Part shown: positions 45,493 to 60,178 of the stretch, one piece after another | Numbering within the stretch: the first letter of the stretch is position 1 | Layout: every line of letters begins with the position of its first letter | Assembly: GCA_965216785.1 (NCBI GenBank) | Contig: OZ244197.1 | Coordinates: 2,464,001-2,528,000, forward strand | Direction of reading: 5' to 3' | Length of the DNA: 64,000 nucleotides | Origin: Thermodesulfobacteriota bacterium | Lineage (GTDB): Bacteria > Desulfobacterota_D > UBA1144 > Nemesobacterales > UBA2774 | Made by a program: the position numbers and the translations under genes | The notes under the pieces: generated by a model | Told to the model about the DNA's origin: nothing | The model's database searches: none | The model's input: only the letters and a program-made list of their open reading frames with translations

Positions 45493-46284
45493 ATGAGTGA
45501 GAGCGTAGAAAATAATAACAGACGCGATAAGATCATTAATGTCGAGGGCTTCACCGCCGCTTACGGCGAGACGGTCGTTATAGACAATATAACGTTTGAT
45601 GTCTACAAGGGAGAAAAGTTTATTATTTTAGGCGGCTCAGGGTGCGGCAAGAGCACGCTCCTAAAACATATGATCGGCCTATACAGACCGGCGAAAGGAA
45701 AGATTTTGATTGAGGGACAAAACATCGGAGCGGCATACGGGCAAGGCAGGATTGAAATTTTAAAGAGCATAGGCGTTGCCTACCAGTCAGGAGCCCTGTT
45801 CGGCTCTATGACTGTGATAGAGAACGTGATGCTCCCGCTCGAGGAATATACGGACCTCAGCAAAGAGACAAGGGAGCTTGTGGCAAGTATGAAGCTCAAC
45901 CTGGTGGGACTTACGGGCTCTGAGGACAAGATGCCGGCTGAGCTTAGCGGAGGAATGATAAAGCGGGCCGCTCTGGCAAGGGCCATGGCACTTGACCCGG
46001 ATATTTTATTTTTGGATGAGCCTTCTGCGGGACTTGATCCGATCACATCCGCAGAGCTCGATCAGCTCATTAACCAGCTCTCTAAGAGCCTTGGAGTAAC
46101 ATTTGTAATTGTCACGCATGAGCTGAACAGTATTTACAATATCGCCGACAGGGTTATTATGCTAGATAAGAGCACTAAGGGTATAATAGCAGACGGGAGG
46201 CCGGAGTACTTAAGAGACAACTCCACTATTCCGGTAGTGCAGAAGTTCTTCCTGCGGAAAACAGACGAGCAGCTTGAATCTTAA
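45493..46284 (+). CDS. mlaF: MlaF-family ABC ATPase
   Basis: GGSGCGKS, LSGGMIKR, DEPSAGLDP. Confidence 0.9.
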   Translation: MSESVENNNRRDKIINVEGFTAAYGETVVIDNITFDVYKGEKFIILGGSGCGKSTLLKHMIGLYRPAKGKILIEGQNIGAAYGQGRIEILKSIGVAYQSGALFGSMTVIENVMLPLEEYTDLSKETRELVASMKLNLVGLTGSEDKMPAELSGGMIKRAALARAMALDPDILFLDEPSAGLDPITSAELDQLINQLSKSLGVTFVIVTHELNSIYNIADRVIMLDKSTKGIIADGRPEYLRDNSTIPVVQKFFLRKTDEQLES

Positions 46285-51645: not shown

Positions 51646-51803
51646 AATGGGGACAGAGGCGATCCTTCGACGAGCTCAGGATGAGCGGGATGAAATGACG
51701 AAATAGGGACGGACCGGAGGGCGAAGCCCGATCGGGGGGAGTAAAATTAAGAACGGGGACAGAGGCGAGTGCTTCACAGCGATGCCAGGGAGGCTAAAAT
51801 TAA
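51646..51803 (+). repeat. Modular intergenic repeat array, copy 1 (three units)
   Basis: Units begin AATGGGGACAGAGGC, AATAGGGACGGACC and AACGGGGACAGAGGC; 51651-51764 matches the reverse complement of 59377-59489 with two substitutions and one indel. Confidence 0.9.
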
Positions 51804-52284
51804 TAAGCCGCGGAAAAAGCAAGACAAGGATGAGGTGCGTAAAAGGGTCGAGAACGGGCTTAAGAGTAAAGACGTCATCCAGCTCATTTTAGCGCTCGAA
51901 GGGGTTAAGATCGACTACGACCACCTGTACTACTACGAGCATACGGGCCTAGTCGTGCCGTCCCTGAGGAAAGCGCAGGGCAGAGGATACCCAAAACTTT
52001 ACTCCACAGAAGACTTTATCATACTACGCTGGCTCGTCTCGCTTCAAAAGAGCGGCGTACCTGTAAGCAGGTTCAGAAGCATACTCGGGTATTTGAAAAA
52101 GAAGATGCCCGAAGTGCTGAAGAAACCTCACAATTGGACGCTCGTAACAGACGGCAAGTCTGTTCAGTTCAAAGATAACCAGTCGTCACGCAAAGTGGAG
52201 GTCATCGAGGACACGGGGCAGTACCTCTTTGCTTTGGACGAAGTAACTAATGAGACCCGCAAGACACCCAAGAAACGCGGTTAA
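51769..52284 (+). CDS. MerR-family HTH regulator (resembles the Rv1830-type subfamily); start uncertain
   Basis: LYYYEHTGLVVPS...GRG..KLYSTED...SGVPV...LVTDG; the annotated GTG lies inside the repeat array. Confidence 0.7.
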   Translation: MLHSDAREAKINKPRKKQDKDEVRKRVENGLKSKDVIQLILALEGVKIDYDHLYYYEHTGLVVPSLRKAQGRGYPKLYSTEDFIILRWLVSLQKSGVPVSRFRSILGYLKKKMPEVLKKPHNWTLVTDGKSVQFKDNQSSRKVEVIEDTGQYLFALDEVTNETRKTPKKRG

Positions 52285-52289
52285 TAAAA

Positions 52290-53534
52290 CTACATAGACT
52301 TATTCCCCTCAGCCACAATATCGGGAATGGATGTGAAGGATATCCTCATCGGGGCAGATTCCGCAGCTCCGTGCATCGGGGCGTAATAGATGCTGTTCGT
52401 ACCGTAGCGCTCATTGATGCTGTCAACGGCGATAGCGACTTTGTCCCGCTTGATCTCTCTTGAAAAGAGCGGGTAGGGGGTCCCCTCGGAGGGAGTGAGG
52501 TCATAGAGGGTCATCGATACGCTGAGCGGGGTAAGACCCCGGGGCCTTTCGGGCCAGACGGAGGAGAAAGCCTCCAGCATTGACTGCGTATCGTTTCTCT
52601 TTGTCATTTTTACGGTCTTTTTCCAGCGGAGATCACGGTCAAAGTATCTAACCTTAACGTCCATGCGGGAGGCGACGTACCCAAGCCTCCTCAGCCTGAA
52701 CGCGGCCTTGTGTATGAGTCTTACGATCACGGCTCTGGTCTTTTCCTCTGTCCTCATCTCGGGCGGGAGCACGTGCGAGTGGCCCACGGTCTTTCTGGAC
52801 GTTTCCGGCTCTGCCAGGTCCTCGCCCCTTATCATGTGCCACCAGCGCCTGCCTACGACGCTCTGCCATATGTAGGCGAAGTCTCGCTCGGAGAGCTTGA
52901 ACATCTGCTCTATCGAATGTACGCCGTGCCTCTTTAGCCGGGCGCGCATACCCTCACCTATGCCCGGGAGGTCTTGTAAATCAAGCTGATAGAGCTTTTC
53001 CGGTAGCTCGTTTTTTGTTATTACGGTAAGGCCGTCGGGCTTTTTCATCTCGGCGGCTACTTTGGCCAAAAAGCGGTTGGTCGAGAGCCCGACAGAACAG
53101 CGGAGCGACTCGCCTGCTTTTTCGTTAATTGCCCTCTTTACGTCCTTTGCGAGCCGGAGCGCCTTCTCAAAACCCCTCTGGCTTCCCGTCAGCCTGCAGC
53201 ACATCTCGTCAATCGACAGCACAGTGTCTACAGGGATAACAGAGTTTACGGCCTCTATGATGCTGTGGTGATACTCTACGTAGCGTACGGGCCTTGCCTC
53301 GACGATGTTGATCGCGGGGCATAGCTCCTTTGCCAGGCCAACTTTGGTGCCTGTTTTCACACCGTAGCGCTTGGCCTCGTAGCTTGCAGCTATGCAGCAG
53401 GTGGTGTCAGCGTCCACGGGGACAACGGCTGTGGGCTTTCCCCGAAGCTCGGGGCGCATCTCTTGTTCTACAGAGGCGAAATACGCGTTCATGTCCAGAA
53501 ACAGCCAGTCAAGAAACTGTTCGTTACGACCCAT
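52290..53534 (-). CDS. dinB: Y-family DNA polymerase (DinB/Pol IV-like)
   Basis: LDMNAYFASVE, IAASYEAKRYGV, SIDE, LAKVAAEMKKPDG, LPGIG. Confidence 0.92.
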   Translation of the reverse strand: MGRNEQFLDWLFLDMNAYFASVEQEMRPELRGKPTAVVPVDADTTCCIAASYEAKRYGVKTGTKVGLAKELCPAINIVEARPVRYVEYHHSIIEAVNSVIPVDTVLSIDEMCCRLTGSQRGFEKALRLAKDVKRAINEKAGESLRCSVGLSTNRFLAKVAAEMKKPDGLTVITKNELPEKLYQLDLQDLPGIGEGMRARLKRHGVHSIEQMFKLSERDFAYIWQSVVGRRWWHMIRGEDLAEPETSRKTVGHSHVLPPEMRTEEKTRAVIVRLIHKAAFRLRRLGYVASRMDVKVRYFDRDLRWKKTVKMTKRNDTQSMLEAFSSVWPERPRGLTPLSVSMTLYDLTPSEGTPYPLFSREIKRDKVAIAVDSINERYGTNSIYYAPMHGAAESAPMRISFTSIPDIVAEGNKSM

Positions 53535-53632
53535 ATTTTAGATGGTAACACGGTTCGAAAAACCTGTCTGGGAGCTTTTTTCGTTTTTGGGAAATTGTAG
53601 GAATTAAGGGGGAGGGAGGTTTAAATGCTCTT

Positions 53633-54625
53633 TTATGTTTGGATACCCTTTTCAAAATTTGATCTTAAATTTTCCAACAATTCTTCCCAATCTATGCAGT
53701 AGTAATAATTACCCAAACTAGTCATACTGCTGAAATATTTATTTTTGTCTAAGGAATCCTTATCGTATCCAAGCCTAAACTTAAGAGAATTGAGAAAGCG
53801 CAAATCTAAGTATAATTCCGAGGCTTTATGAGTTTTTTCTTTAATGGCTAATTTTACTGTTGTGTCAATCTCTATAAGTTGAGCAAACGGAATACCAAAA
53901 CTATTGAGAGAGATATGGTTCTTAGTATCAGATATGTGAGTTAATGAATCCTCATAATATGCGTTACTACCCTGGGTGAATATTGCATAAATATCTAATC
54001 CAAGTATCTCGTTATAGACTTTCCTAACATCTTTGACAATATCCAGAATATATTCAGGATTATAAGTGTAAGAAACATTGCTTTCGAAGTGACCCACAGT
54101 CCAGTTGCTTTTTAGAATCACATTATCCGCAAATGATATAAAAGACACATCAGAATATTTTGCAGCAAGTTTATCAATCGCATCACGTAGATTGATCAGC
54201 TTTTCATAATTCAGAAGGCCATTCTTTAATGCATTTTTTACTCCGATCGCATCGATCCAACAAAATACTGAATATTGCCTCAAATGTAGATGTTCGTACC
54301 ATGAAGATTTAACAAAAATATGTGGTCTTTCACCATATATTGGACAACTCACACATGTGACAAATTGGTCCCTAGGTAGATCAATGGTGACTTCGTGGAA
54401 GGTGTACAATACATCTGGAAACCAAGATAGTTCTATTGAGTTCTCATTGATTCGTCGAGCTACAATATCACTTATAGGGTCTACGGAGACATATTCACGA
54501 GTAGAAAAACTATTAAGCATTGCATTCTCATAATCCTGCATCAAACTCTCATCCATCATATAGGATTCTTCGTTTTTAGGTACTTGGTCGAATTCATGAA
54601 CTACAAAACTCTCATGCTCAAACAT
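53633..54625 (-). CDS. AT-rich hypothetical protein; C-terminal half resembles a class III nucleotidyl-cyclase-like palm fold
   Basis: VFCWIDAIGVK...SFADNVIL...AIFTQG pattern; ATG 54625 after GGAG. Confidence 0.6.
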   Translation of the reverse strand: MFEHESFVVHEFDQVPKNEESYMMDESLMQDYENAMLNSFSTREYVSVDPISDIVARRINENSIELSWFPDVLYTFHEVTIDLPRDQFVTCVSCPIYGERPHIFVKSSWYEHLHLRQYSVFCWIDAIGVKNALKNGLLNYEKLINLRDAIDKLAAKYSDVSFISFADNVILKSNWTVGHFESNVSYTYNPEYILDIVKDVRKVYNEILGLDIYAIFTQGSNAYYEDSLTHISDTKNHISLNSFGIPFAQLIEIDTTVKLAIKEKTHKASELYLDLRFLNSLKFRLGYDKDSLDKNKYFSSMTSLGNYYYCIDWEELLENLRSNFEKGIQT

Positions 54626-54650
54626 TTGTATAACACTCCACAAGAGTAGT

Positions 54651-55655
54651 TTATGTTTCTAATTGTAAATCATCTGGACTTAGTGCTTCAACTGCTGCAA
54701 ATCCCTTGGTTTTCTTGAAATTCATATTATGAACAAAATTTTTCATAGAATCTGAAGGGTCAATCTCATCTAGATTTAATCTTTCTAATGTAGCTCTTGG
54801 AATAGCAACAGAGAGTATTGGTTGTTCTTCGATATGGCCTGTGCTTGAATTTAATAGATTATCAATTGCAGTCACAACAACAGCATTTACAGGAAGCACA
54901 GAAAACAATTCATTCGCAACCCTCAGTACACAGCTACAAATATAATCTTGATACAGTTCATAATACTTTCCCATGGGCATTTTCTTGTAAGAAACTTTGC
55001 CACTTTTTAAAAGGCTTTTTGATTCGTCTGGAATTACATCTTCACCGTGAACATTGATTGAAGCTTCAATAATACGAGATTCCCCAATTTTAAAATCAAG
55101 ACCTGAGCCTATTTCGACTATCTCTGAAAATGGGTTTAACTCTTCTATGACTTCTAAATATGCATCAACTTCTTTATCAAATAACCTAAGTGCGAGGTTT
55201 TTACTATCTTCCCAGTCAGATTTAGCTTTATCGTATTCCTCTAATGCGAACTCGTACTCATCGTCATCTAAACTTCTGCTTTTTTCGATATCATTGTATA
55301 GATCATTCTTCTTTTTTTCTGTTCTCTTAAGCAATTTATCAAACATTCCGGGTTTATATGTTTCATGCAGGTTCTTCGCATTATCTTCGTTTTTTGAGTT
55401 CCGTACTGGTTCAGTAGGCGGCTTTGAATCTCTGATGTCAGCCCAATCAATCCTCTCTGAGTATTCTTTGTGAACCGATAACAATCTATCTATAAAATTT
55501 TCATATACTTCAACTTCATAAGCTGCTTGCTCCATTGCAGCCATTCGTTCTTCTTGCAACTGTTGTTTCTCAAGCGCTCGTTGTCTTCGTCGAGAGTCTC
55601 GCTCAGCAGCTTTAATACTCGAATTCACAGACCTTACAAAACCTTTCCAACCCAT
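54651..55655 (-). CDS. AT-rich hypothetical protein with an N-terminal coiled coil and a conserved-looking C-terminal domain
   Basis: R/E/Q/A-rich N-terminus; LKSGK...YQDYIC...LRVANELF..LP...TGH.E...ILSV...R resembles, from memory, regions of DUF4236- and Mrr-associated proteins; ATG 55655 after AAAGGGGG. Confidence 0.7.
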   Translation of the reverse strand: MGWKGFVRSVNSSIKAAERDSRRRQRALEKQQLQEERMAAMEQAAYEVEVYENFIDRLLSVHKEYSERIDWADIRDSKPPTEPVRNSKNEDNAKNLHETYKPGMFDKLLKRTEKKKNDLYNDIEKSRSLDDDEYEFALEEYDKAKSDWEDSKNLALRLFDKEVDAYLEVIEELNPFSEIVEIGSGLDFKIGESRIIEASINVHGEDVIPDESKSLLKSGKVSYKKMPMGKYYELYQDYICSCVLRVANELFSVLPVNAVVVTAIDNLLNSSTGHIEEQPILSVAIPRATLERLNLDEIDPSDSMKNFVHNMNFKKTKGFAAVEALSPDDLQLET

Positions 55656-55793
55656 TTTAATACCCCCTTTGCAGATATATAAAACAAGAATTACATAATA
55701 TTTGGGTGAATGCAAAAGTTAAGAAGATAATTGGCAGATTCTCACAAACAATACCAAAATATAGGGTTGGTTCTTGCTTCGCTAACTATTTTC

Positions 55794-55875
55794 ACCCCCA
55801 TCCTAACCTTCCCCCGTCAAGGGGGAAGGAAGTATAAGAGAAAGGATGAGATTCCGGCTCGTAGGCCGGAATGAC
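55794..55875. repeat. Two adjacent REP-like hairpins
   Basis: CCTTCCCCC-GTCAA-GGGGGAAGG at 55807-55829 and ATTCCGGC-TCGTAG-GCCGGAAT at 55851-55872. Confidence 0.75.
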
Positions 55876-55899
55876 TAAATGCTGTGTTAGACTTTTTGT

Positions 55900-57168
55900 A
55901 TGGCCAGTCATAGCTTTGACTACCTAATAATAGGCGCCGGGATATTGGGCTCGGCGGTAGCGTACTCCCTTTCAAAAAGGCTGAATGAAAGGGGCAAGGG
56001 GGTCAGCATAGGAGTTTTGGACCCGGACCTCGAGGGAGAGCACTCTTCCACCCTTAAAAATGCGGGAGGAGTGAGGGCTACCTGGAGGAACCGTGCCAAT
56101 ATCTCCCTGTGTAAATTCTCTATAGAGTTCTATGAAACGATCGCAAGCGAGATACAGTTCAGAAAGCTCGGCTACTACTGGATGCACGGCGAGCGCTCCT
56201 GGGAAGAGGTAAATGAGAACTATCCGCTGTACAAGGAATACGGCTTGCCCACAGAGCTTCACCCGCCCGGGAAAATCCCGGAGCTAATGCCCTTTGTTGA
56301 TAACTTAGAGGGGATCGCCGGGCTTTCGGTATCCAGAAGAGCAGGGCTCATAGACCATTATTCTCTAAGGCAGCTATACAGAAAAGGGGCGCGGGAAATG
56401 GGAGTTAGGTTTTTTGACCGCTACTACGTCGACTCTATGTCCCTTGAAGGATCCTGCGTTACGAAAGTCACCGCATTTGACCTTACAAGCAGAGGCCAGC
56501 AAGCCGGGGGGTTGCACGATGCCGTAAAAGAACTTCTCGTAACAGGAGACGCGGGTGAGGGGGGAAGCATAGCCGAGTTTACATGCGGCACTCTCATAAA
56601 CACCTCCGGCGCCTGGGCGCCCAGGATCTCCGCTCTTTATGGATTTAACGACGAAGAGATAAAACCAAGGAGACGGCAAATGGTGGTAATGAAGAGCCAG
56701 GACGTCGATCTATCCTCTTATGGAATGGTAATAGACACATCGGATATATATTTTCATAAAGAATCGGGGGACATTCTCGCCGGCTACTCCAACATGGACG
56801 AGCCCTACGGCTACAACTTTGAATTCAGCTTCGGCGGAACGGACGAGGAAAGCCAATTTGTAAAATACATCTGGGAGCCGCTATCTAAACGAATGAGCGG
56901 GTTCGAAAAGGTAAAGCTTGTAAGGGGATGGGCCGGGATTTACGCAGAGACGCCCGACCGCTCTGGGTATCTGGGAAAGGTGCCGGGCCTTGATAACGTG
57001 TATGAGTGCGCGGGTCATACCGGAAGGGGGCTTATGATCTCCTACGGCGCGGGGGAGGCGCTCACGGACCTCATTGTCGAGGGAGAGTTCCGAGAAGGGC
57101 TCGAGCATACGCATGATCTATCAAGGGAAAGACCCTCGGGCAAGCAGTACGAAGGACTCCACTTATAG
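55900..57168 (+). CDS. FAD-dependent oxidoreductase (DAO/sarcosine oxidase beta family)
   Basis: IIGAGILG, STLKNAGGVR, GAWA, WAGIYAETPD, GHTGRGLM. Confidence 0.88.
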   Translation: MASHSFDYLIIGAGILGSAVAYSLSKRLNERGKGVSIGVLDPDLEGEHSSTLKNAGGVRATWRNRANISLCKFSIEFYETIASEIQFRKLGYYWMHGERSWEEVNENYPLYKEYGLPTELHPPGKIPELMPFVDNLEGIAGLSVSRRAGLIDHYSLRQLYRKGAREMGVRFFDRYYVDSMSLEGSCVTKVTAFDLTSRGQQAGGLHDAVKELLVTGDAGEGGSIAEFTCGTLINTSGAWAPRISALYGFNDEEIKPRRRQMVVMKSQDVDLSSYGMVIDTSDIYFHKESGDILAGYSNMDEPYGYNFEFSFGGTDEESQFVKYIWEPLSKRMSGFEKVKLVRGWAGIYAETPDRSGYLGKVPGLDNVYECAGHTGRGLMISYGAGEALTDLIVEGEFREGLEHTHDLSRERPSGKQYEGLHL

Positions 57169-57176
57169 CCGCGGCG

Positions 57177-57485
57177 CTACAGCTCGATCTGAATAGAGTC
57201 TCCGTCAATGACTACTTTATAACACCCAACGTTCTCTTCTGCCGGGGGCGTGAGTACTTCACCCGAGGTTATGTCAAACTTCGCCCCGTGCCAGGGGCAG
57301 GTGACAGTGTGTCCGTCAAGCTCGCCTTCACACAAGGGCCCGCCCACATGAGTGCATTCGTTATCTATAGCGAAGAACTGTCCGCCCGAATTAAATAGGG
57401 CTATTTCCTTGCCGTCGACCTCGACAAGCTTCGCTTCACCATCTGTAATTTCTCCAACTTTAGCTACCTCTACAGATTCAGCCAC
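57177..57485 (-). CDS. Rieske [2Fe-2S] ferredoxin
   Basis: CTHVGG...CPWHG; GTG start after GGGAG. Confidence 0.92.
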   Translation of the reverse strand: MAESVEVAKVGEITDGEAKLVEVDGKEIALFNSGGQFFAIDNECTHVGGPLCEGELDGHTVTCPWHGAKFDITSGEVLTPPAEENVGCYKVVIDGDSIQIEL

Positions 57486-57499
57486 TGGATTTCTCCCTA

Positions 57500-57826
57500 T
57501 TATTCGTCCATAAACTGTATTGCTTCCTCAAACTCCTCGGCCATCCCCGGGTGTCCGTGCCTATTGGCCGCTTCTATGCCTTTTACGTAGGCTTCCCTCG
57601 CCATCTCGGGCTGCCCTAGGTTCATGTGGCACTCGGCCAGTATCCTGTACACAGCGCCCTCATCGTCTTTGATATTCAGGTACTCGTGTATAGCGGCCAC
57701 AGCCTCTTCATACATCTCGGATTTGTAGTACTCGTTTGCGAGCCCGAACCGCCCGAGCGGGTTTTGCGGGTCTCTTTCAATCATTGCTTTTAGCGCGTCT
57801 ATTTTACTGCCGGTCAATTTTATCAC
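57500..57826 (-). CDS. Tetratricopeptide repeat protein
   Basis: FGLANEY...A and YRILAECH..LG...AREAY TPR patterns. Confidence 0.75.
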   Translation of the reverse strand: MIKLTGSKIDALKAMIERDPQNPLGRFGLANEYYKSEMYEEAVAAIHEYLNIKDDEGAVYRILAECHMNLGQPEMAREAYVKGIEAANRHGHPGMAEEFEEAIQFMDE

Positions 57827-57936
57827 CTGTTGTTTGTAGTTTGATAAATATATTACACAGATTGTTCCCCTGAATAAAATCCTGCAATTGACTGTTTGAC
57901 TTAATCCTGCATAATTGAGAGCTACTTAATCAGCTC

Positions 57937-58494
57937 ATGAACCACTCAATAAGATATAAATTAATGGACTTCCTGTTCCAGGCAATTGCCGTTAGGCAGT
58001 ACCTGATCTTCTCGGGCTGCTTCTTTGTTCTCACGGCTCTTGTAATGTTTATACTAAACGCTCAGATTATGCCCGCGGACTGCCCGGGAATGATATCACT
58101 TGAGCTAGCCTTCACAAAAGGAGCGCTGGGAGAGATTGTAAACGCGTGCGGCGCCGGCGGGGTGAGGGCGCACCAGGTAATGATTTGGGTCGATTATATA
58201 TTCATTATCTCCTACGTCGGATTCCTCGGGAACCTGCTGGGCTCTTTAGTTAGGCACATCGAGTATGAAAAGGCGCTTCTGTACTTTTCCCTACCCATTT
58301 ACGCTGGCGTGCTGGACGTCATAGAGAATACGCTTCTGCTGATCGAGCTTTCAGATACACAGAGCCTCAGCGGCATTCTGATATTTCTGGCTTCTATAGC
58401 CGCGCTGGTAAAATTCCTGCTTCTCATAGCGGCTATAGCTATCACGATTTACTATCTGTTCGAGCTTATTACAAAGAGGGCGGATTCAAGCTAG
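57937..58494 (+). CDS. Hypothetical membrane protein
   Basis: About four hydrophobic helices; SLELAFT, DYIFI and DVIEN motifs. Confidence 0.7.
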   Translation: MNHSIRYKLMDFLFQAIAVRQYLIFSGCFFVLTALVMFILNAQIMPADCPGMISLELAFTKGALGEIVNACGAGGVRAHQVMIWVDYIFIISYVGFLGNLLGSLVRHIEYEKALLYFSLPIYAGVLDVIENTLLLIELSDTQSLSGILIFLASIAALVKFLLLIAAIAITIYYLFELITKRADSS

Positions 58495-59294
58495 GCTATT
58501 CCGTTTCGCATTGAGAACTTCACAAGATCGACCAGGTTATGAATTTCGAGCTTTTTCATGATGTTGGCCCTGTGGGTCTCGACCGTCTTTACGCTTTAAG
58601 ACAGCTCCTCGGCAATACCCGAATTACTCAAACCGCTCGTAATTAACACGAGCAACCTCTGCTCCTTGGCGCTAAGCGTGTTGTACCGATCGTGCTCTTT
58701 ATCAAAGTCTTTAATAATGGTATCCGGCGCCAGATACATCGGGCTTTCGTAAACAAAGTTGTTTTCCACCACTGTCGGGTGTGTTTTCATGATCGAAATT
58801 AGATCCTGGGAGCTTATTTTATTTACAGGATACTGGTTCATCATTATTAGAGATTTCTCCATACATAGCTTGTTTAAAAATGCTTTCTTCCAAAGCCTCT
58901 CTTTATTGCTCAGGAAATAAAATAAATAGCTGTACATCACAAGCACCCTCACTGGGCTCCGTCCCTTCTCTAGTACTTTATCAAGACTAATCCTGAGATT
59001 AGAGACAATAGTGCTCGCTCTTTTATTCTCTTTTACAGAGTTTTTGATAATTATTTCTTCATAGGCCTTCGCACTCCCGTTTTCAGTACGTATTACACCG
59101 TTTCCTTCAAGCCTTGAGATAAGCTCTAGGGGCGCACGACGGTCGGATATAACAACACAAGTCAATTTACACTTGATAGAGTGTGCAAGAAACTTGGCGG
59201 CTATCTCGTAACACTCTGTATCGTTGTAATACAGATGACATAAGTGCTCATGTGCTTTAAGCGTGGGTAAGTACTGGAATATTGACTGTTGCAT
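58491..59294 (-). pseudogene. MEDS-domain plus LuxR-type HTH regulator with an in-frame TAA inside the HTH
   Basis: HEHLCHLYY (MEDS-like). The frame reads GLSNSGIAEELS*SVKTVETHRANIMKKLEIHNLVDLVKFSMRNGIA*, with TAA at 58596-58598 and the natural stop at 58491. Confidence 0.85.
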
Positions 59295-59310
59295 GTTTAA
59301 TTTATTCCCA

Positions 59311-59635
59311 GGCATCGCTCGTTCTAATTTTATTCCTGCTCTCGCTCACACGCCTCGTTCACTCGCGGTCCCCAGTCTCTGTCCCCATTCTTAATTTTAC
59401 TCCCCCGATCGGGCTTCGCCCTCCGGTCCGTCCCCATTTCGTCATTTCATCCCGCTCATCCTGAGCTCGTCGAAGGATCGCCTCTGTCCATTTATTTTAT
59501 CCTACGGGCATCGCTCCAAAGCGCTCGCCTCTGTCCATTTATTTTATTCCCGCCCCGGCATCGCTTGTTCTAATTTTATTCCAGCTCTCGCTCACACACT
59601 TCGTTCACTCGCAGCCCCCAGCCTCTGTCCCCATT
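59311..59635 (-). repeat. Modular intergenic repeat array, copy 2 (five units)
   Basis: Five units each begin AATGG(GG)AC on the minus strand; 59311-59389 and 59557-59635 are 79-bp direct repeats with 7 mismatches; the middle matches the 51.7-kb array. Confidence 0.9.
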
Positions 59636-60178
59636 ACATCTTATCAATCGTATCTTTAATAATCAGAGCGGCGTTATGGATAGAGTCAATCCTTCGCAGC
59701 ACCTCGGCATCGTCTCCGGGCGCCCCTTCCTCGAGGAATAATTCGGTACTCCCGATAATTGCGGCAAGGGCATTTTCCGTCTCCTCAATCAGCTTCCTCT
59801 GAGTTCTGTGTTTATGGAGCGCAATCTCGATTGTCGTATAAAGATCCGTTTCTTGAAACGGTTTTAATATGTAACCGTAAGGATTTGTGGTCTTTGCCCT
59901 CTTAAGGGTCTTTTCATTCGAATAAGCCGTAAGGAATATGACGGGGATGTTATAAAGCGCGCTCGTATAACCTTAGCAGCCTCGGTGCCGTCCATCTTAC
60001 CCTCCAGCATAATGTCCATTAGAACAATTTCAGGCTCAGTGCGCTCCGAAAGCTCAATCGCCTCCTCAGCCGAGCGAGCGATACCCGTTACCGAATATCC
60101 AAGGTTTTGAAGTGTTTCCTCAATATCCTTTGCGACTATAATTTCGTCTTCCACTACAAGTACTTTGATCATTTTCAT
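59634..60178 (-). pseudogene. Response regulator (REC plus helical tail), frameshifted near 59952
   Basis: VLVVEDE...LMDIML...DG...RARF continues in another frame as NIPVIFLTAYSNEKTLKRAKTTNPYGYILKPF...IKDTIDKM*. Confidence 0.85.

Follow-up and report, generated by a model that had tools for sequence, protein, structure and literature searches.

Head-to-tail arrays of nested G·A-rich hairpin units with a TIRYT-like head in a genus of Thermodesulfobacteriota

In Escherichia coli, repetitive extragenic palindromic (REP) sequences combine a short unpaired 5′ tag with an imperfect hairpin and form intergenic tandem mosaics (bacterial interspersed mosaic elements, BIMEs) that vary by locus and strain; according to the accessible part of PMC3333891, TnpA-REP assembles variable tandem REP arrays in vitro by strand transfer. 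TIRtrons are built on TIRYT genes (PMC3733652; subclass 2.1 in Quentin et al. 2018, PMC6006769), which are flanked by terminal inverted repeats (TIRs) with the motif GGGGWSAS and form the second largest Y1 subclass, occurring in 14.9% of strains (PMC6006769, accessible sections). The available text of PMC3733652 reports no binding or nicking test for any TIRYT, and Di Nocera et al. note there no obvious correlation between transposase gene and repeat family; Bertels et al. describe modestly repeated 16-mers beside group 1 RAYTs (bioRxiv 10.1101/119735, in the part available). Hairpins also flank the genes of Ssn GIY-YIG nucleases, of which SsnA cuts single-stranded DNA a few nucleotides upstream of its hairpin (Chenal et al. 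2025, PMC11893778, accessible portion). Here we analysed a stretch of 64,000 nt (the window; contig OZ244197.1, positions 2,464,001 to 2,528,000) from a Thermodesulfobacteriota bacterium, whose genome (G000) comprises 3.12 Mb at 46% GC and is 92% complete. The window holds two arrays of a repeat family that works like a REP/BIME mosaic, carries the end motif of TIRtrons and was found without their flanking gene. Neither this family nor nested hairpin arrays with a TIRYT head turned up in the literature searched, which was mainly open access.

An original prediction, made from the window sequence, had described the arrays as payload cassettes A to D shuffled on a constant head. Both arrays and all four payload sequences were recovered at the predicted positions, and their parts are laid out as follows.

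51646..51657, plus strand: left junction of array 1, AAT followed by the head GGGGACAGA, which fits the TIRYT end motif GGGGWSAS
51658..51700, plus strand: C joined to the 5′ arm (GGCG) of a B frame; a near-identical hairpin lies upstream of a GIY-YIG gene in locus L011
51662-51688, plus strand: C in array 1, a likely GIY-YIG/Ssn-type hairpin; its reverse-strand CGTCA tag ends at 51700
51706..51749, plus strand: D unit of array 1, with its own head (51706-51713), a hairpin laid out as CCG-GA-GGGC-gaa-GCCC-GA-T-CGG (51714-51735) and a tail (51738-51749)
51755..51802, plus strand: B unit of array 1, with head (51755-51763), a hairpin laid out as GGC-GA-...-GA-T-GCC (51764-51786) and a tail to 51802
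59539..59635, minus strand: first unit of array 2, with head (59624-59632), nested A hairpin (59584-59612) and its tail (59571-59582), B-frame 3′ half (59557-59565) and final tail (59539-59550)
59492..59538, minus strand: B unit of array 2, with head (59530-59538), hairpin (59507-59529) and tail (59492-59502)
59392..59491, minus strand: C-D block of array 2, a copy of 51649-51752, with head (59483-59491), C (59452-59478), tag (59440-59451), D head (59427-59435), D hairpin (59405-59426) and tail (59392-59403)
59298..59386, minus strand: last unit of array 2, with head (59378-59386), nested A′ (59338-59366) and its tail (59325-59336), B 3′ half (59311-59319) and tail (59298-59308), stopping 4 nt before the ATG (59294) of a MEDS-LuxR gene

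Three of the cassettes are variants of a single unit of 45-55 bp: A, B and D each comprise an (A)TGGGG head, a hairpin, a G-run and an A-rich tail. The head reads (A)TGGGGACAG, the hairpin holds tandem G·A pairs, and units always stand head-to-tail. Because A and D carry GGGG heads of their own, A, B and D are units and not payloads on a common head, as the original prediction had it. It had also overlooked the half-hairpins (AGCGATGCC plus tail) at 59557-59565 and 59311-59319, and had ended array 2 at 59311 instead of 59298; since these half-hairpins trail A, A sits within a split B frame. Nesting in the B frame was seen for A, for D and for foreign hairpins. The predicted variation of cassette order does hold across loci and species, but C-D is one copied block: it matches at 100/104 positions between the two window arrays, its junction motif is absent elsewhere in G000 and from every fetched relative locus, and only B changes side between the window arrays.

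B and D share the plan NNN-GA-[inner stem-loop]-GA-T-N′N′N′ with outer stems GGC/GCC, CCG/CGG or CGG/CCG, and hybrid units that join a B outer stem to a D inner stem were found. For D, 46 rows were taken without a pairing filter and 3 non-family rows removed; in the 43 distinct rows that remained, 97.7% of cells were paired and 55 were compensatory (two-sided), a count that related sequences inflate. Neither value was matched in any of 500 shuffles (0/500), and slid controls paired at 20-50%. An earlier tally of B and D hairpins demanded outer-stem pairing, and only its inner-stem counts are independent. Most D loops are GNA triloops with a closing C-G pair, a combination that is especially stable in DNA. 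The A hairpin forms a zipper of alternating GA and Watson-Crick dinucleotides, and its inner pair, read in 41 rows with 27 different loops, was AC..GT in 18, AT..AT in 18, AT..GT in 3, GC..GT in 1 and a mismatch in 1. The purine-rich strand is probably the one that folds, since the G·T pairs work only there and the facing GA dinucleotides also point to it.

The family is spread well beyond the two window loci. A strict module scan of G000 detected 37 arrays (52 B, 14 D, 10 A and 3 C modules) and none in the reversed genome, reversed sequence of a genome or pattern serving as the chance control for repeat counts; with degenerate copies, counted by eye, arrays number about 45. For the 12-mer GGGGACRGAGGC we counted 43 copies in G002 and 85 in G001, the two genus relatives of G000 (completeness 80-82%), against 2 and 3 for the reversed pattern. 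Exact head-plus-B matches in the species collection (G000 excluded) numbered 55, all from two Candidatus Dadabacteria genomes, and among 40 relatives the listed non-genus matches fall nearly all within the C part of the query. The A/B/D family is genus-restricted and non-coding. A plasmid search with the repeat gave no match.

Most strict-scan arrays (34/37) are intergenic; the 3 intragenic ones are all sense and in frame, in genes for an RDD-domain protein, a glycosyltransferase and a hypothetical protein. The arrays outside the window adjoin mostly housekeeping genes, among them ruvA/ruvB, tolA, miaB, prs, hisS, rmlC/rmlB, bioD and clpB (names are our reading of Pfam domain matches), and a regulator-specific control element was rejected on this ground. 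The predicted orientation into a regulator gene thus holds for the MEDS-LuxR gene and weakly for a MerR-like open reading frame (ORF; E=0.0046), but is not family-wide. Divergent gaps, which have 2.5x more DNA, hold 11 arrays and convergent gaps 2; between co-directional genes, 13 arrays are sense and 8 antisense. Arrays are clustered, with 14 neighbours less than 10 kb apart versus 4.0 expected, a number reached in 0/10000 simulations, and the two longest exact shared blocks connect neighbours 7.6 kb and 1.2 kb apart. A composite transposon bounded by the window arrays was rejected, there being no inward bias and the flanking genes being syntenic in relatives. One array-rich region (G000:C1:2136300-2168000; L028, L029) also contains several S24/HTH (helix-turn-helix) repressor genes and a phage-like replication ORF, and is possibly a decayed prophage or satellite.

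That the units act as RNA, either as processed small RNAs, one suggestion of the original prediction, or as leader or trailer hairpins, is very unlikely. The stems would fold as RNA too, many arrays lie in transcribed gaps and all 3 intragenic arrays are sense, but the 13 to 8 split between co-directional genes, an Rfam search without a match at E<=1 and the mostly GNA triloops of D all speak against it, and it would not explain how units reach new sites. That the arrays are CRISPR-like or guide arrays, of constant repeat and acquired spacers, has next to no probability and is already largely refuted. The head is indeed constant, the middle variable and foreign hairpins are captured, but the payloads are self-hairpins that recur genome-wide, neither Cas1 nor reverse transcriptase was found in the three genus genomes (0/3 each), and no gene is associated with the roughly 40 dispersed arrays of 1-5 units. 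Two pattern hits in viruses had nothing else of the unit and were dismissed as chance. On this point the original prediction, which had ruled out CRISPR from the recurrence of payloads, was right.

Comparison with relatives provided filled and empty versions of the same sites. Arrays of relatives that could be anchored by both flanks defined 64 site bins in G000, of which 42 were scored empty and 22 filled, although about 4 of those scored empty reflect arrays that the scanner missed or sites close by, and in a few cases a single site was divided among bins; the empty orthologous sites that the original prediction proposed to look for thus exist. Of the filled bins, 0/22 share their module string between species, window sites included. 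Short-read assemblies collapse tandem copies, and therefore only type changes carry weight (A vs BBB, D vs A or BB). At the array 2 site, L264 carries B-B and other repeats at the junction where the window has A-B-C-D-A, and at the array 1 site L277 has B-A and L136 A-B-A-D versus C-D-B in the window. Strains X5 and X8 keep essentially the same arrays as the window strain; turnover is seen between species, not within species. The REP/BIME-like mosaic of the original prediction is therefore borne out, but its active assembly is not, as close strains keep their arrays and rapid assembly finds no support. Further sites in the window, at about 3876, 6716, 10031, 32771, 33690, 39530 and 46275, are empty in G000 and filled in relatives; at 46275 the relatives' insert reaches the last codons of an ABC ATPase gene.

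The left border of the arrays is sharp, lying between WWAT and GGGG: among 169 first heads, near-duplicate assemblies included, position -1 is T in 91% and position -2 is A in 74%, and 16/27 empty-site rows had their flank aligned to within 3 nt of the head. The right border is uneven: at the clearest of the sites listed, about 1-25 bases of the host have no match. No target-site duplication longer than 3 nt was found in 15 arrays (a rough test, in which some right ends were mis-set) or at empty sites; together with the lack of inverted ends, this separates the family from DDE-type miniature inverted-repeat transposable elements.

Host processes alone could have produced part of this picture, with slippage, gene conversion and repair spreading a repeat that is kept as a protein-binding or promoter-side element. 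Homogeneous BBB or BBBB arrays with locus-specific variants occur and fit slippage, the C-D block common to neighbouring arrays fits conversion, arrays lie mostly upstream of genes (11 in divergent vs 2 in convergent gaps), and no enzyme was found. This explanation nevertheless does not account for how new insertions, sharp at their left border, entered unrelated empty sites, nor for the in-frame gene insertions and the TIRYT-type head, and a fixed regulatory role is hard to square with presence and content that differ between species at the same gene. We regard it as rather improbable.

The head provides the link to Y1 elements. At the array border, GGGGACAG fits GGGGWSAS, the motif of the terminal repeats flanking TIRYT genes (PMC3733652, PMC6006769, accessible parts). 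We examined 28 Y1 genes of the phylum, and 15 of them had an inverted-repeat pair scoring at least 17; the motif was exact at both ends in 7 of these and within 1-2 mismatches in the other 8. TIRYT-type ends flank Y1 genes in other families of the same order. Two Y1 genes that were checked are RAYT-like with a DnaA-like C-terminus, and the TIRYT-rich genome G036 contains a miniature element (L381) with TGGGGACAGAC at both ends. The tail of the family also resembles the inner part of the L154/L327 repeat, at 10/11 letters in 70/824 non-independent tails compared with 4/20000 random genome 25-mers, a comparison made post hoc. Elsewhere in the order, a single-copy TIRYT-like gene is present in 30/36 genomes of genus g14 (L144-L148, L336-L354); the few copies examined showed no end repeats, which hints that this gene is domesticated.

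Taken together, the head, the left border and the empty sites suggest, at a probability of roughly 0.55, that the family derives from the end of a TIRYT-type Y1/HUH single-strand transposase element and owes its spread to such an enzyme acting in trans, which was later lost or lies in unassembled sequence. The Y1 enzyme itself is inferred. It would bind the folded purine strand, nick just 5′ of GGGG within (A)TGGGG, hold the cut 5′ end on its tyrosine and pass it to a target 3′-OH ending in (A)T; host repair would then complete the 3′ side, without precision. As the tails end in an AAT-like target, each new unit would attach behind an existing one or within it, with its orientation unchanged, and so build up tandem, nested mosaics of one direction. 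Later turnover at a fixed head would probably also involve host slippage and local gene conversion, which homogenise or replace the contents. By analogy, the strand transfer by E. coli TnpA-REP (PMC3333891, accessible part) offers the chemistry that such a mechanism would need.

Several observations weigh against this origin. PF01797 (Y1_Tnp) is absent from G000, G001 and G002, and a Y1 profile search of G000 gave no convincing match, with one weak, uninspected hit (E=1e-4). The profile likewise found nothing in any fetched array locus, including 80 metagenome loci, the L154 TIRYT query matched 0/32 other family genomes at E<=1e-30, and no TIRYT gene flanked by an A/B/D unit was seen. GGGGWSAS has only 8 nt, 3 of them degenerate, and the known TIRs are inverted pairs without an A/B/D hairpin in the accessible parts of PMC3733652 and PMC6006769. 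The ragged 3′ border is inseparable from ordinary divergence at 70-90% identity. Nearest-neighbour folding singled out no unit hairpin (z of -0.08 to -1.03). Near and far arrays did not differ in overall shared block length (p=0.14), neighbouring arrays did not tend to face inward (5 inward, 4 outward, 5 same), and no leading- or lagging-strand replication bias was seen (20/37). On the folding result, the nearest-neighbour energy model may under-weight tandem G·A pairs. PF01797 hits were obtained in 3/24 family genomes tested, and the 80-82% completeness of G001 and G002 is compatible with both loss and non-assembly of the enzyme. With no Y1 gene in the genus genomes, with the family query or in the array loci, the most fitting reading is that the repeats are orphans or depend on a gene missing from the assemblies. 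Searches for other candidate enzymes gave no four-helix-bundle protein (PF05635, 0/5 genomes) and no Y2 transposase (0/3 genomes, uninformative since control genomes were also blank), and neither the single DUF559 gene of G000 nor the GxxExxY gene of G001 has a unit at its flanks.

The family accordingly falls between described systems. Like TIRtrons, it has an outer border that fits GGGGWSAS and dispersed, moderately abundant copies, some of them clustered; unlike the inverted pairs of TIRtrons, its A/B/D units nest, stand head-to-tail and hold a covarying G·A hairpin in the stretch from head to tail. No Y1 gene (HUH, Y---NP, C-terminal HTH) flanked by such a unit was found. It shares with GTAG-type REPs, BIMEs and REPINs a short unpaired 5′ tag, an imperfect, covarying hairpin, variable tandem mosaics and a mostly extragenic location, but the hairpin foot is GGGGACAGA and not GT[AG]G, no opposite-orientation arrays lie within 150 bp of each other among the 37 (0 inverted pairs), there is no REPtron, and arrays are not enriched between convergent genes. 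The original prediction had suggested assembly by an HUH nuclease cutting at the head; the fit to the TIRYT motif, and the flanking of Y1 genes by such ends in the order, favour this link, whereas no enzyme came to light in the genome or genus. The same fit means that the family partly matches a known element end, an outcome that the original prediction had named as telling against it.

A bolder extension of TIRYT-type spread treats the head as the dedicated landing pad of a single-strand system for cassette exchange: a Y1 enzyme would nick at the fixed head and swap whole hairpin modules between loci, target hairpins of unrelated Ssn nucleases among them, even within the FolK loop that closes over the substrate. 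We consider this doubtful; if true, promoters and protein loops would be diversified by what amounts to a miniature, integron-like shuffler. For the TIRYT-type origin itself, the family supplies a candidate TIRYT substrate. Its left border is mapped, its hairpin covaries and sites known in both filled and empty form number in the dozens, which would make the formation and spread of TIR-type repeats testable; without an enzyme, it remains a well-described selfish repeat of an uncultured lineage.

Cassette C, by its sequence and distribution, is a hairpin foreign to the A/B/D units. It also occurs without a head, in G000 and in other genera of the family, and in locus L011 a near-identical C lies about 150 nt upstream of a 96-aa GIY-YIG ORF (E=6e-20). 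Small GIY-YIG genes of the genus and the family are flanked by related G·A-rich hairpins (L318, L321, L324). Within the searched DNA, a complete B frame with C nested in its loop was seen in 11 distinct sequences, and in one sequence that place was taken by a second hairpin type, which matches DNA upstream of a GIY-YIG gene in L322. In the window copies, the C tag (reverse-strand CGTCA) stands 12 nt from the stem. C is thus likely a captured passenger, the target hairpin of an Ssn-family GIY-YIG nuclease, which would mean that hairpins of one nuclease system are carried inside the repeat of another. To the known Ssn NTS-SRM and CGTC-tagged REPs (PMC3733652, PMC11893778, accessible parts), only C bears a likeness, in lying beside a small GIY-YIG gene, in its head-less copies across the family and in the reverse-strand CGTCA tag of the window copies; it departs from them in missing the SRM pattern and in the 12 nt between tag and stem, and A, B and D are not of this type. 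Two of the small GIY-YIG genes (L322, L325) lie directly behind apparent tRNA/tmRNA 3′ ends, and the end in L322 is partly duplicated. No GIY-YIG gene of UvrC length was seen in a frame of G001 or G002; G004 and G007 have one.

It is possible, though unlikely, that such nucleases drive the whole family: Ssn-type GIY-YIG enzymes would nick at or near hairpins and host repair would copy and swap units, the TIRYT-like head being old or coincidental. The cutting of single-stranded DNA by SsnA upstream of its own hairpin (PMC11893778, accessible portion), the small GIY-YIG genes with similarly built flanking hairpins in both genus relatives, the position of C in L011 and the match of the second nested hairpin to L322 all agree with it. 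Yet 0/7 inspected GIY-YIG loci had an A/B/D unit at their flanks, and A, B and D have no CGTC-type tag; the published SRM pattern matched neither the window arrays nor C at up to 2 mismatches. The GIY-YIG domain search of G000 gave no match, hence no UvrC-type hit either, and head-less C is family-wide while head-plus-B is confined to the genus. Adjacency to nuclease genes, which the original prediction proposed to examine, was found for C in L011 but not for A, B or D beside TIRYT genes, the seven GIY-YIG loci or the DUF559 gene of G000.

Arrays have also entered a protein loop. At one site in folK, three lineages (L065/L279, L072, L249) carry different in-frame arrays that add about 40-57 residues; G000 folK (G000:C1:1434070) has a plain loop without an array when compared with L065:1248-1913. 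The site corresponds to residues 86-88 of solved HPPK chains, which we take to be the mobile catalytic loop 3. The repeats thus reshape, in frame, a loop of an essential enzyme. Rickettsia palindromic elements insert in frame into protein genes in a like manner, and differ from this family in that the folK site has three cassette contents. Intragenic REPs are noted in the accessible part of PMC3733652. In L072 folK, the conserved WGPRT is also altered to EPRV.

Three genes adjoin the window arrays.

51769..52284, plus strand: MerR-like ORF downstream of array 1, with a match below the Pfam cut-off
59634..60178, minus strand: response-regulator gene, whose ancestral stop abuts array 2
58491..59294, minus strand: gene for a MEDS-LuxR regulator, lying downstream of array 2 and bearing a premature TAA near 58596

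The ATG region that L277 and L136 have for the MerR-like ORF is missing in the window (51769-51810), where the open frame begins with a GTG that lies in the B hairpin and presumably serves as the start. The predicted start of array 2 at the response-regulator stop (TAA 59636-59634, overlapped by the array head) holds in the ancestral frame only, as a 2-nt insertion at 59951 shifts the frame in the window strain; this insertion is present in run X2 and absent from X5, X8 and the ortholog L264. The response-regulator and MEDS-LuxR genes are thus both broken in the window strain, and both are intact in L264. Between the arrays, a 2.3-kb segment of low codon score (53582-55882) contains two unannotated ORFs of 336 and 354 aa without a Pfam or NCBIfam match, and strain X5 has 52 other letters in its place. 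Near the edge of this segment, at 55787-55838, lies a further hairpin repeat that is unrelated to the family; it gave 18 BLAST matches in G000 and presumably resembles repeats near DUF559 genes.

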